Of a stretch of DNA of 42,229 bases, positions 892 to 16,079 are shown one piece after another; the stretch's first letter is position 1, and the number at the start of each line of letters is the position of its first letter. The notes below the pieces were generated by a model, which saw only the letters and a list, made by a program, of their open reading frames with translations, had not been told where the DNA came from and ran no database searches. The position numbers and the translations under genes are program-made. The DNA is from a virus. Its lineage: Duplodnaviria; Heunggongvirae; Uroviricota; Caudoviricetes. The stretch lies in IMG/VR virus record IMGVR_UViG_2718217897_000004. One strand, written 5' to 3'.

Positions 892-981
892 GGAGAGATG
901 CCGGAGCGGCTGAACGGACCGGTCTCGAAAACCGGAGTGGGGGCAACTCCACCGGGGGTTCAAATCCCCCTCTCTCCGCCA
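892..981 (+). tRNA. serU: tRNA-Ser (anticodon CGA), prophage attachment site
   Basis: 90-nt sequence GGAGAGATGCCGGAGCGG...CTCGAAA...GGTTCAAATCCCCCTCTCTCCGCCA with long variable arm and anticodon loop containing CGA; integrase gene lies 53 nt downstream. Confidence 0.9.
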
Positions 982-5386: not shown

Positions 5387-5444
5387 AAAAAGGGCGGCAG
5401 AGCAGTCACGGAGTAAAACTGATACCGCCAAACGTCACCAGAAA
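5387..5444 (-). ncRNA. dicF: DicF small regulatory RNA (53 nt) with 3' U-tract
   Basis: Minus strand reads TTTCTGGTGACGTTTGGCGGTATCAGTTTTACTCCGTGACTGCTCTGCCGCCC followed by TTTTT, which matches recalled DicF; sits immediately upstream of dicB as in Qin. Confidence 0.85.
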
Positions 5445-5784: not shown

Positions 5785-6003
5785 TTAACGCGGGTATGTA
5801 ATCATTCTGGCAATGCTTAATGCCGCTGCTTTTTCCAGATTGGTGATATCCTGCTCCAGAGAGAACAGATTTTCAGCCTGCTTAGCCCTGGCTTCATTAG
5901 CCCATTTCAGATCCTGCGCTGCATTAATTTTCTGGCGCATCCACTCATAAAGTTCATCATCGGTATAGTCTGGCGCGATGATGACAGGTTCTCGTTTCTG
6001 CAT
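5785..6003 (-). CDS. YdfC-like small protein of the dicB operon
   Basis: 72-aa frame from internal ATG (MQKREPVIIAPDYTDDELYEW...) with strong AAGGAG SD 5 nt upstream; same length and position as Qin ydfC. Confidence 0.5.
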   Translation of the reverse strand: MQKREPVIIAPDYTDDELYEWMRQKINAAQDLKWANEARAKQAENLFSLEQDITNLEKAAALSIARMITYPR

Positions 6004-6074
6004 GTCAGCTCCTTGTGGTTCGCATTGCCTGCTTTTAACCACGTCAGGCGAGGTGGTATCCTCTGAGGGGTCTG

Positions 6075-6431
6075 TTACTCGAGAGGAAATTGGTTATGAA
6101 TACAATCAAGTTTTCTTGCCCAGAATGTGGTGGCGAAGTCTTTGACACATCCTTTAAGCCGCAGGGCTCTGACAGTTTCGCGGGAGCCATCTGCAAAAAT
6201 TGTGGTCACCTTGTAACTGAAGATGAGTCCTCGCAGTTCGATGACGAAATCGTTGACAATATCTTCGGTGCACTCACCAGAGACTTTCTGAAATAAAGAC
6301 GCATACCGCTTAGTTACCGCTCTGATAACTCTTACCTGTCCGGCAATGGCGCTGATGTCAATATAAAGCGCCATTGCTGCTTCTTTGCCGATCCCGTGAT
6401 GCCTTCCATTCTGATGTTTGACTTCGCCCAC
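6075..6431 (-). CDS. Hypothetical first gene of the leftward (dicB) operon; alternative to the overlapping plus-strand zinc-ribbon ORF
   Basis: 118-aa frame with GTG start and GAGGA SD; occupies the ydfA/ydfB position but fully overlaps a zinc-ribbon ORF on the other strand, so at most one is likely real over the shared span. Confidence 0.25.
   Translation of the reverse strand: MGEVKHQNGRHHGIGKEAAMALYIDISAIAGQVRVIRAVTKRYASLFQKVSGECTEDIVNDFVIELRGLIFSYKVTTIFADGSRETVRALRLKGCVKDFATTFWARKLDCIHNQFPLE
6096..6296 (+). CDS. Small acidic zinc-ribbon protein (CPECGG...CKNCGH), antisense to the leftward early operon
   Basis: 66-aa frame from ATG 6096 with GAGAGG SD about 9 nt upstream; two CxxC pairs about 25 aa apart; acidic C-terminus. 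Confidence 0.4.
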   Translation: MNTIKFSCPECGGEVFDTSFKPQGSDSFAGAICKNCGHLVTEDESSQFDDEIVDNIFGALTRDFLK

Positions 6432-6515
6432 TGAGAAATCCTCTGTTTCCCCTTAACGCCGGGGTAGCGGAACTGTTTGCTGAGAACACCGTGCGGTGTC
6501 TTGATGCAAGTAAGA

Positions 6516-6566
6516 TTAGCCATGGCTAACAATTTGGTCAAGCATTTTTGTTTGTCATGACTAACA
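6516..6566. promoter_or_regulatory. Left operator/promoter region: two palindromic repressor sites
   Basis: Perfect 14-bp palindrome TTAGCCATGGCTAA (6516-6529) and near-palindrome TTGTCATGACTAACA (6552-6566), between dicA and the leftward operon. Confidence 0.5.
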
Positions 6567-6601
6567 TTTTGGACAGTCAAAAAGATAACGCATTGATTGC
6601 G

Positions 6602-7009
6602 TTATCTTTTGTTTGTTCGTTGACGGGCTTTTAATAACTCTTCAAAGAGTTTGTTGAAATTTTTTACTCGGGCGCGCATCTCGGTGAGCTGAGCATCCTG
6701 TTCTGATTCAGGCAGTGCATTAAAAAGCTCAAGGAGCTCATGTTCTTTGGGGGATAGAGCAACTGGCTCCTCAATAGGTGGTGATGGCTGCTTGTCTTCA
6801 TCGCCAAATAGAATCCATGTTGGCGAGCACTGCAGTACTTTGCTGAGGGCAAAAAGATTCTTTCCTGTAGGTTCGCTATCATCCCGCTCCCATTGTGAAA
6901 CTGATACGTGAGAAATTTTCAGGGCTTTAGCAAGAGACCTTTGGGTGTATTTGAGGTTTTTTCGGCGATATCTAATGCGTTCGCCAATGGTTAAATTTTT
7001 TGTATCCAT
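6602..7009 (-). CDS. dicA: Repressor DicA (CI-type HTH repressor of the immunity region)
   Basis: 135-aa protein MDTKNLTIGERIRYRRKNLKYTQRSLAKALKISHVSVSQWER... matches recalled DicA in length and sequence. Confidence 0.9.
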   Translation of the reverse strand: MDTKNLTIGERIRYRRKNLKYTQRSLAKALKISHVSVSQWERDDSEPTGKNLFALSKVLQCSPTWILFGDEDKQPSPPIEEPVALSPKEHELLELFNALPESEQDAQLTEMRARVKNFNKLFEELLKARQRTNKR

Positions 7010-7044: not shown

Positions 7045-7076
7045 TGTTAACATCTATTTTGTTAGTCATGGCTAAC
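7045..7076. promoter_or_regulatory. Right operator/promoter region between dicA and dicC
   Basis: GTTAGTCATGGCTAAC (7061-7076) repeats the left-operator core; TGTTAACA palindrome at 7045-7052; divergent promoters expected here. Confidence 0.5.
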
Positions 7077-7092
7077 AATTAAGGTGCTTTAA

Positions 7093-12005: not shown

Positions 12006-12467
12006 GGTATTAAAAAACGCCCCGTATACAGACGTTGATCGCCTGAGATGTGGGGATAGGGAGTTAGTTAAATAGTTATACAACAATACCTGATTTTATA
12101 TTGAAGCAAGAAATAGGTTGCTACATATTGAATCATGCGCGTGTACGTCAAATATGGGAGGTCATCGTGCTGGTTCTGAAATGTGCGCTGGCTGTTGCGG
12201 CAGTAATGGCAATTTATTGTCTTGTTATCGTTCTTATGAATCACCTCTCTGATTGATTTCATATTGGCGAGGTGATGGGAGTTAAGTAGAATGGCTGCGG
12301 GTGCTTGAGGCTATCTGCCTCGGGCATGAACACCAACGGCAGATAGAGAAAAGCCCCAGTTAACATTACGCGTCCTGCAAGACGTTTAACATTAATCTGA
12401 GGCCCAATCTATGCTTCACAAACGTAGGTTAGCCTCTTACGTGCCGAAAGGCAAGGAGAAGCAGGCT

Positions 12468-12623
12468 ATGAAGCAGCAAAAGGCGATGTTAATCGCCCTG
12501 ATCGTCATCTGTTTAACCGTCATAGTGACGGCACTGGTAACGAGGAAAGACCTCTGCGAGGTACGAATCCGAACCGGCCAGACGGAGGTCGCTGTCTTCA
12601 CAGCTTACGAACCTGAGGAGTAA
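12468..12623 (+). CDS. hok: Hok/Gef-family type I toxin (51 aa)
   Basis: MKQQKAMLIALIVICLTVIVTALVTRKDLCEVRIRTGQTEVAVFTAYEPEE carries the Hok signature LTRK-LCE-R-R-G--EVA-F-AYE; in-frame upstream extension from 12411 resembles a mok-like leader; structured leader and terminator flank it. Confidence 0.8.
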   Translation: MKQQKAMLIALIVICLTVIVTALVTRKDLCEVRIRTGQTEVAVFTAYEPEE

Positions 12624-15769: not shown

Positions 15770-15845
15770 GGCCCTTTAGCTCAGTGGTAAGAGCGAGCGA
15801 CTCATAATCGCCAGGTCGCTGGTTCAAATCCAGCAAGGGCCACCA
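15770..15845 (+). tRNA. tRNA with CAU anticodon, Ile2(LAU)-like (ileX/ileZ-like)
   Basis: 76 nt, acceptor GGCCCTT/AAGGGCC, anticodon loop CTCATAA; resembles recalled ileX. Confidence 0.8.
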
Positions 15846-15846
15846 G

Positions 15847-15923
15847 CCGCCACTAGCTCATCAGGAAAGAGCGTCAACCCTTTAAGTTGAGTGTGCGAGG
15901 TTCGAGTCCCCGGTGGCGATCCA
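15847..15923 (+). tRNA. tRNA-like gene of uncertain isotype (possibly degenerate)
   Basis: Cloverleaf can be drawn but with C1-A72 mismatch, one T-stem mismatch and anticodon loop CCTTTAA (C at position 33; anticodon would be UUU). Confidence 0.4.
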
Positions 15924-15925
15924 GT

Positions 15926-16001
<76 letters not shown>

Positions 16002-16004
16002 TAT

Positions 16005-16079
<75 letters not shown>

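Follow-up and report, generated by a model that had tools for sequence, protein, structure and literature searches.

Antisense overlapping protein genes in bacteria are contested, because most candidates are young and come with expression data alone. Described pairs in Escherichia coli and Pseudomonas include nog1, laoB, asa, pop, ano and olg1/olg2, from the work of the Neuhaus/Scherer and Ardern groups; their support is mainly RNA sequencing and ribosome profiling (Ribo-seq), and their embedded open reading frames (ORFs) have been called evolutionarily novel (PMC5960689, PMC7103648, PMC8850804, bioRxiv 10.1101/2020.11.18.388249). Lambdoid phages provide a second point of reference in the morons which, in the account credited to Juhala et al. 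2000 as cited in PMC4104026, are independently transcribed extra genes inserted in lambdoid genomes. Here, we describe a locus in a 42,229-nt stretch of viral DNA (IMG/VR record IMGVR_UViG_2718217897_000004). This whole stretch is referred to as the window, and locus coordinates are counted on its scale. The host element is a lambdoid E. coli prophage of the Qin/DicA type, and positions 6075-6374 probably form a genuine antisense dual-coding module: a minus-strand protein of about 99 amino acids (aa) and, embedded opposite to it, a 66-aa plus-strand protein with a putative Cys4 zinc ribbon. We call these the sense gene, as it runs along the early-left operon, and the Zn gene. As in the published pairs, a complete ORF lies opposite another gene and automatic annotation keeps one of the two. 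A survey of E. coli antisense overlapping genes does not mention the Zn/sense locus.

Two codon-aligned frames

The locus comprises the following frames.

6096-6296, plus strand: putative zinc-ribbon (Zn) gene, 66 aa plus stop, ATG at 6096 and stop at 6294-6296, from the ORF list
6075-6374, minus strand: operon-sense gene, conserved core, 99 aa plus stop, ATG at 6374, phrog_21318
6375-6431, minus strand: possible N-terminal extension, first 19 codons of the 118-aa frame, up to GTG 6431, E. coli-specific
6075-6431, minus strand: full frame, 118 aa, GTG start at 6431, AGAGGA resembling a Shine-Dalgarno (SD) sequence upstream

A first-pass annotation, made from the sequence without database searches, had reported a 66-aa acidic plus-strand ORF with two CxxC pairs and its own SD, fully inside a 118-aa minus-strand frame with a reasonable ribosome-binding site, and had proposed that either the former was a genuine antisense-embedded gene or the latter an artefact. 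Both ORFs were recovered as described, the plus-strand ORF at 6096-6296 wholly embedded in the minus-strand ORF at 6075-6431. The Zn protein (MNTIKFSCPECGG...CKNCGH...DFLK) is acidic, with an isoelectric point of 4.24 and an acidic C-terminal helix, and its four cysteines (C8, C11, C33 and C36) form a CPEC and a CKNC pair. Its SD, GAGAGGA, is located at 6081-6087, 8 nt upstream of the ATG. The minus-strand frame is indeed open over 118 codons, but the conserved gene is the 99-aa form that starts at ATG 6374. The 19-codon extension is not conserved, being absent or different in lineages outside E. coli, and a 1-nt deletion in SS52-type prophages frameshifts it while leaving the 99-aa core intact.

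Sense codons 27-99 pair codon for codon with the Zn gene. Because the frames are codon-aligned, with plus-strand positions 1, 2 and 3 corresponding to minus-strand positions 3, 2 and 1, a stop in the minus frame can only arise through TTA, CTA or TCA on the plus strand. This is the antisense frame that is likeliest to remain open by chance. Given one of the two proteins, the other frame is open in a single genome with a probability of about 0.1-0.4, so the earlier argument that a Cys4 shadow frame would be unlikely by chance does not hold for one genome; it does hold across lineages, where conservation exceeds chance. The same probability, taken per lineage and given the Zn protein, favours an explanation in which only the plus-strand gene is real and the minus-strand ORF is its shadow. 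This corresponds to the current practice of the Prokaryotic Genome Annotation Pipeline (PGAP) wherever the family model NF047912 fires, and we consider it quite unlikely in view of the comparisons below.

Conservation across lineages

Protein and locus searches with either frame yielded 12 lineages, down to about 45-60% amino-acid identity. These comprise two types in E. coli, Klebsiella variicola (L108), Klebsiella michiganensis (L107), Citrobacter/Enterobacter-like loci (L086 and L087-L105), Serratia (L109) and metagenomic loci (L110-L115). A metagenome scan added no further lineage, a scan of GTDB representative genomes returned unrelated zinc ribbons only, and viral scans with P0043 and P0044 had no matches.

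Both ORFs are open in all 12 lineages. The ATG, the stop position and all four cysteines of the Zn protein are invariant, and its length is mostly 66 aa (range 62-67). The sense protein varies from 93 to 103 aa and starts at the equivalent of ATG 6374 in the window, mostly behind strong SDs (GGAGAGGAAATG, GGAGGCAGGAAAAATG and GAGGTGAAAAATG), while its ORF usually ends at most two codons from the complement of the Zn ATG. In Klebsiella L108, the SD of the Zn gene lies outside the sense ORF. There, the module belongs to the rightward operon, with cro on one side and the replication genes on the other, and the sense frame once more points in the direction of early transcription. The flanks beyond 6027 differ in every lineage.

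A more distant relative of the Zn protein is the 76-aa product of a cassette described below (L164, L178 and L191; hhalign 96%, E-value of 2e-9, 27% identity). It too is accompanied by a codon-aligned antisense ORF, with an SD and an ATG 27 codons past the Zn stop and an end at the Zn start. The similarity of this ORF to the sense family extends over 98 columns and takes in the N-terminus that lies outside the overlap (hhalign 93%, E-value of 2.7e-7). As the distant relative carries a related antisense partner, the Zn/sense pair appears to have co-diverged. Searches of 1.84 billion representatives gave 11 matches to the sense family and none outside the overlap arrangement. This is a point for a lone plus-strand gene, and it also fits overprinting on the Zn gene, which is probably the older partner. 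Comparative analysis shows that the pair has apparently moved between lambdoid prophages as one unit over the long term.

Selection on the two frames

Selection was estimated by the method of Nei and Gojobori (NG86) in nine lineages, as the proportions of synonymous (pS) and nonsynonymous (pN) differences. Within the overlap, the Zn frame had a pS of 0.54 (0.45-0.64), a pN of 0.23 and a pN/pS of 0.43, and the sense frame a pS of 0.38 (0.30-0.47), a pN of 0.27 and a pN/pS of 0.72 (0.56-0.90). The 26 sense codons outside the overlap, an internal control, had a pS of 0.69 (0.59-0.79), a pN of 0.36 and a pN/pS of 0.53 (0.39-0.65), and contained no stops. Each of the other five frames of this stretch has 6-20 stops; four of them gave ratios of 0.92-1.04, and the third-position-aligned antisense frame gave 0.61. 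Neighbouring control genes from the same loci, at 58-87% identity, had pS values of 0.72-0.87. As pS in the overlap is low relative to both the neighbours and the non-overlapping codons, synonymous sites of both frames seem to be constrained only there. The synonymous-site comparison across homologous prophages that had been suggested initially therefore gave depressed values in both frames.

We compared these estimates with divergence-matched simulations of selection on a single frame (150 runs each). The other frame reached a median pN/pS of 1.1-1.3 and a minimum of 0.78-0.93, so that none of 150 runs gave the observed value for either the sense frame under selection on Zn (at most 0.71) or the Zn frame under selection on sense (at most 0.42). 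Runs that left all nine lineages open made up at most 0.7%. Taken together, these values indicate that both frames are under purifying selection.

For a lone plus-strand gene speaks the stronger constraint on the Zn frame, with a pN/pS of 0.43 against 0.72. Such a gene would leave unexplained why the sense ORF runs 26-27 codons past it with a conserved SD and ATG and no stops in nine lineages, at a pN/pS of 0.53, and why Zn synonymous divergence is below that of neighbouring genes and of the internal control. The first-pass suggestion that the minus frame is an artefact thus finds no support, given that none of the 12 lineages interrupts this frame, that its start is conserved behind strong SDs and that it is constrained outside the overlap.

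The converse explanation takes the minus-strand operon gene as the only real one and the Cys4 frame as its shadow by chance; older PGAP and Prodigal calls, of 99 or 118 aa, agree with it. Gene callers favour the minus frame (clusters of 575, 163 and 103, compared to 85 for the Zn protein). We nevertheless regard this explanation as highly improbable. All four Cys codons are kept in every lineage even though the sense protein only requires Thr or Ala and leaves their third positions free, which has a probability of about 1e-3 per lineage. Furthermore, sense pS drops from 0.69 outside to 0.38 inside the overlap, the ATG, stop position and SD of the Zn gene are conserved, including an SD beyond the sense ORF in L108, and a distant Zn homologue exists. 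Since both frames look real, the choice between them that was posed at the outset falls away.

Natural Zn-null alleles and points against dual coding

Several results weigh against the dual-coding interpretation. The most direct is a nonsense allele in which Zn codon 14 (6135-6137) changes from GAA to TAA, with a change from F to L in the sense protein. It was found as an exact match in 516 complete E. coli genomes, compared to 416 with the exact intact allele, and the minus frame is intact in the former, as expected if only the minus-strand gene were real. Zn-null genomes are mostly E. coli that make Shiga toxin (STEC), such as O157, O145, O103 and O55, and the prophage lineage is of the PPompW type (L002, L061-L064, L072, L080, L083 and L132). 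Additionally, the Zn gene of L084 is stopped at E44. In SS52, codon 14 is AAA (Lys). Nonsense alleles with an intact sense frame suggest that the Zn gene is dispensable in these prophages, where the sense gene persists. Many strains carry both alleles, with the intact copy in a second prophage of the same genome. One genome with the intact allele, that of strain Ecol_881 (NZ_CP019029), is 100% identical to the window over 6020-6440. A minus frame kept over a disrupted Cys gene had been named as the refuting case; it exists in this one widespread lineage. The TAA allele looks like pseudogenisation in one prophage lineage and not like the general state.

Other reservations concern the estimates themselves. 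The constraint on the sense frame in the overlap is weak (pN/pS 0.72), the pS interval of the Zn frame touches that of the internal control (0.45-0.64 and 0.59-0.79), and the lineages are phylogenetically related, so that joint probabilities assuming independence are overstated. AlphaFold2 (AF2) models were poor for the Zn protein (predicted local distance difference test, pLDDT, 54.6) and moderate for the sense protein (pLDDT 68.7; helix-helix-hairpin-helix), the better model being a further point for a lone minus-strand gene. For both proteins, fold searches and sequence-profile searches of the PDB returned nothing informative on function. Transcription start site (TSS) or Ribo-seq data that could be linked to the locus were not found, and the leader sequence described below is absent from the EDL933 TSS supplements. 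Within that leader, the match to the promoter consensus is 8 of 12 positions plus the TG, a generic promoter scan did not call it, and a co-varying inverted repeat overlaps the putative -10, which a simple promoter model does not explain.

Protein families and annotation

The Zn protein matched NCBIfam NF047912, the ECs_2282 family of putative zinc-binding proteins, with 57.3 bits (cut-off 37, E-value of 1e-15) over model positions 1-56 of 60. Together with the cysteines, ATG and stop position kept in 12 lineages and a pN/pS of 0.43, this supports the original proposal of a genuine antisense-embedded gene. Members of NF047912 agree with the Zn protein in length (66 aa) and in the CxxC...CxxC pattern, and RefSeq applies the ECs_2282 name to many genomes of E. 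coli, Klebsiella, Citrobacter, Enterobacter and Serratia. The Zn gene is therefore already catalogued; what is new is the dual-coding relationship and the cassette context. NF047912 is a name only, and the annotations seen never mention embedding antisense to a conserved operon gene. No literature match was found for ECs2282.

The sense protein matched phrog_21318 over positions 1-99 of 99 (E-value of 7.3e-66), a profile that Klebsiella P0031 also matched (E-value of 6.9e-36). The RefSeq counterpart of the sense protein is of the WP_001240336 type. RefSeq annotates the plus-strand gene in some genomes (SS52) and the 99-aa minus-strand gene, as a hypothetical protein called by PGAP, in others (PV15-279, NZ_AP018488), but never both, and the choice of strand varies with the allele and the pipeline version. 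As the module is carried by 936 of 5426 complete E. coli genomes, this amounts to an annotation problem in which, for roughly 17% of these genomes, half of what the module encodes is missing.

Weaker similarities did not lead to functions. The Zn protein scored 15.7 bits against Lar (TIGR03655; E-value of 0.014), where the family cut-off is 39.6, and weakly matched phrog_6422 (Ral; E-value of 0.0098). Lar and Ral of Rac and lambda are likewise Cys-rich proteins of about 60-66 aa from the leftward early region of lambdoid prophages, but they are transcribed along the early operon, which the Zn gene opposes. With a score so far under the cut-off, a Lar/Ral function cannot be assigned. A lambda N-type antiterminator was considered for the sense gene and rejected, as its N-terminus (MALYIDISAIAGQVR...) lacks an arginine-rich motif; no antiterminator protein family matched the sense protein, and Rfam gave no match in 5950-6620. 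A Pfam scan of divergent homologues and a PADLOC scan gave no informative match.

A leader common to a family of small cassettes

Between-lineage conservation begins abruptly at 6027, about 70 nt before the Zn ATG. The intervening leader contains the following elements.

6027-6095, plus strand: cassette leader, about 70 nt, upstream of the Zn ATG, conserved in all lineages
6027-6031 and 6045-6049, plus strand: leader inverted repeat 1 (IR1)
6035-6040, plus strand: -35-like TTAACC, being TTAACC or TTCACC across lineages
6054-6062, plus strand: extended -10-like TGGTATCCT, with TGGTATNCT as the lineage form
6060-6067 and 6078-6086, plus strand: inverted repeat 2 (IR2), a hairpin with a conserved CA-rich loop

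The order of IR1, -35-like element, extended -10-like element, IR2 and SD recurs across loci as GCCTG-N14-CAGGC, followed by TCGGTGGTATNCT, a co-varying hairpin with the loop GTTCTCACACA, and the SD. An IMG/VR scan for the leader identified at least 120 loci (L154-L273). Among the matches listed, to which all cargo counts below refer, the small ORFs that follow the leader in IMG/VR contigs number more than 30 and are unrelated, with an ATG 27-48 nt past GGTGGTAT. These ORFs mostly face against the early-left operon and toward the repressor gene, and IR2 occurs with at least 31 distinct complementary arm pairs. That the Zn gene sits behind a leader common to so many other ORFs is difficult to reconcile with a chance shadow of the minus-strand gene. 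More than 1000 further E. coli genomes without the module contain the first 37 nt of the leader, with 100% identity. No known functions were found for the other cargo proteins of the cassette family.

We infer that the leader is a portable promoter and leader of moron-like cassettes. More broadly, it may be a portable promoter/leader, an RNA element or a recombination linker. A put-like antiterminator leader, after the two-stem RNA of about 70 nt on HK022 early transcripts, was rejected, as a leader profile compared with the HK022 immunity region by nhmmer gave an E-value of 1.3; the only resemblance to putL/putR is local (CUUUUAACCAC versus UCUUUAAACCAU) and on the anti-operon strand, which is the wrong one. 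An AgvB-like reading of the CA-rich loop, as an RNA directed against a small RNA, was likewise discarded, since AgvB is a different RNA at the PR' moron site, and the CACACAAC motif merely resembles GcvB target sites. Rfam returned nothing for the leader at an E-value of 5 or below. RNAalifold did not recover the leader hairpins because their register shifts, single-sequence folds of the leader had unremarkable z-scores, and wobble counts in IR2 did not identify the strand. No description of the leader or its sequence was found in the searchable literature.

Two other loci have ORFs on both strands behind or opposite the leader. In E. coli 55989 (NC_011748.1, about 1794880-1795200), the leader (L153, 2501-2571) is followed, antisense to the dicB operon, by a 106-aa ORF (L153, 2572-2892, plus strand) that has no annotation and resembles a membrane protein, and a 205-aa YdfB read-through ORF shadows it on the opposite strand. 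In L221 and L229, another Zn-ribbon cargo (L221, 3888-4091) lies behind the leader, with about 55 codons overlapped in a codon-aligned antisense frame. In L221, the overlapping part is the C-terminus of a 120-aa operon-sense ORF that opens with a ClpX-type C4 finger (CSFCG...CSEC). Antisense overlaps may therefore recur at leader cassettes.

An open codon-aligned antisense frame was found at 3 of the 33 cargo genes behind the leader, two of these three being in the Zn family. With so few, the sense ORF does not appear to be a by-product of the niche. ORFs reading into other cassettes (L153 and L221) can be cited in support of a lone plus-strand gene, yet the minus frame is uninterrupted throughout the 12 lineages, and likewise in the deep relative, against 1 of 31 cargos outside the family. 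They also bear on a third explanation, in which both frames are translated and the sense ORF is mainly a conduit for ribosomes across the cassette, for instance against Rho-dependent polarity, with a product that has no function of its own. The weak sense constraint in the overlap, the lack of fold or family matches for the sense protein and the lack of a recognisable N/nut system in these phages are consistent with such a conduit. However, 28 of 33 other cargos are crossed without any open antisense frame, which suggests that a conduit is not generally needed. Amino-acid constraint both outside the overlap (0.53) and inside (0.72, compared to a null of at least 1.1), together with the hhalign similarity in the N-terminus of the deep relative, further makes this explanation unlikely. 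A general anti-polarity rule, under which every anti-operon cassette would be covered by a translated sense ORF, was rejected, as only 3 of 33 cargos fit.

The surrounding immunity region

The module is flanked by an early region with the following features.

6602-7009, minus strand: DicA-family repressor, 235.7 bits
7093-7323, plus strand: DicC/Cro, profile match
5785-6003, minus strand: ydfC, early-left operon neighbour
5392-5443, minus strand: DicF RNA, with dicB further left
6513-6541, minus strand: leftward early promoter, -35 TTGACC at 6536-6541 and -10 TAATCT at 6513-6518, aligned with the K-12 Qin dicA-ydfA interval
6516-6529: operator palindrome TTAGCCATGGCTAA, overlapping the leftward early promoter; an operator-like copy is also present at 7067-7079
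6580-6610, strand not assigned: hairpin (13-bp stem, flanked on either side by T-runs) in the interval from dicA to the early-left promoter
6344-6376, strand not assigned: hairpin CAATGGCGCT-N13-AGCGCCATTG, 10 bp, spanning the sense-gene start codon, 48 nt past the Zn stop

The operon-sense gene opens the leftward early operon, which is under DicA control and whose promoter converges on the Zn gene. The slot had initially been likened to that of lambda N or of Qin ydfA-ydfB; alignment with K-12 Qin agrees with the ydfA-ydfB position, and lambda N-type features were not found. On the plus strand, the hairpin at 6580-6610 is the sole strong terminator-like site 3' of the Zn gene. The hairpin at 6344-6376 was predicted in 11 lineages and is followed by a weak U-tract. 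One of its pairs is G-C, A-U or G.U when read as plus strand and A.C when read as minus strand in 6 of the 11. It could act as a 3' hairpin that ends or stabilises the Zn mRNA, occlude the codon at which the sense gene starts, or do both.

The 5' leader of the early-left transcript (6445-6507, minus strand) hardly differs from the K-12 Qin dicB operon leader (L003, about 1900-1990), although the first genes are different, and holds two small hairpins, ACACCG-CA-CGGTGT and CCCC-GGCGTTAA-GGGG. In O157:H7 SS52 (L001, 2579-3197), a 77-aa plus-strand gene partly overlaps a 135-aa minus-strand gene between dicB/DicF and ydfC. This convergent pair in the same operon, both annotated as hypothetical, is absent from the window. 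Elsewhere, the prophage carries a sok antitoxin RNA of the hok/sok type (12299-12473, plus strand, 113 bits), a four-tRNA cluster (15770-16076, plus strand) and a tRNA (892-978, plus strand) that adjoins the integrase and probably marks the attachment site.

A model for opposite-state expression

We propose that the Zn gene belongs, as cargo, to a family of small cassettes whose common leader of about 70 nt combines a -35 of the sigma-70 kind and an extended -10 with a CA-rich stretch and an SD, and that these cassettes would mostly point against the early-left operon and toward the repressor gene. Given the promoter-like leader, the Zn gene probably has its own promoter and could be expressed in the lysogen, under repression of the early promoter. 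Once that repression is lifted, strong early transcription converging on the Zn gene would read through it and yield the sense protein instead. The two products would thus be made in opposite phage states, a mutual exclusion suggested by the architecture of the locus.

A fuller version is possible, and we put it forward only tentatively. It combines an ancient overprinted pair, with opposite-state expression enforced by convergent transcription, and a large system of small-gene cassettes, so far undescribed, that face against the operon in lambdoid prophages of enterobacteria and of which the module would be one member. The leader of about 70 nt with its two co-varying hairpins would then perhaps have a further role, either as an RNA element or, in cargo exchange, as a recombination linker.

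Comparison with known systems

The Zn/sense pair is a strong candidate for antisense dual coding in bacteria, and its support is of the opposite kind to that of the published pairs: it consists of strong comparative evidence, both frames having persisted in five or more genera and in a relative that shares 27% identity. Its non-overlapping N-terminus as an internal control and the natural Zn knock-outs in about 500 STEC genomes make dual coding directly testable. The cassette leader, in turn, points to an unexplored reservoir of small genes beside the immunity region, mostly opposing the early operon.

Like morons, the Zn cassette has a small cargo and its own promoter-like element, adjoins the immunity region and has an orientation independent of the operon around it, with variable cargo between constant flanks. 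Classical morons, in contrast, lie between genes and have their own terminator, while the Zn cassette is located inside a conserved gene on the opposite strand, behind a leader common to dozens of cargos. In K-12 Qin, ydfA-ydfB occupy the same slot as the module, downstream of dicA and between the conserved P(dicB) leader and ydfC, but they have no sequence similarity to it and are two small sense genes with neither an antisense gene nor the cassette leader. Finally, whereas the embedded ORFs of published antisense pairs have been regarded as novel, the embedded Zn gene seems to predate its partner and to be under the stronger constraint.

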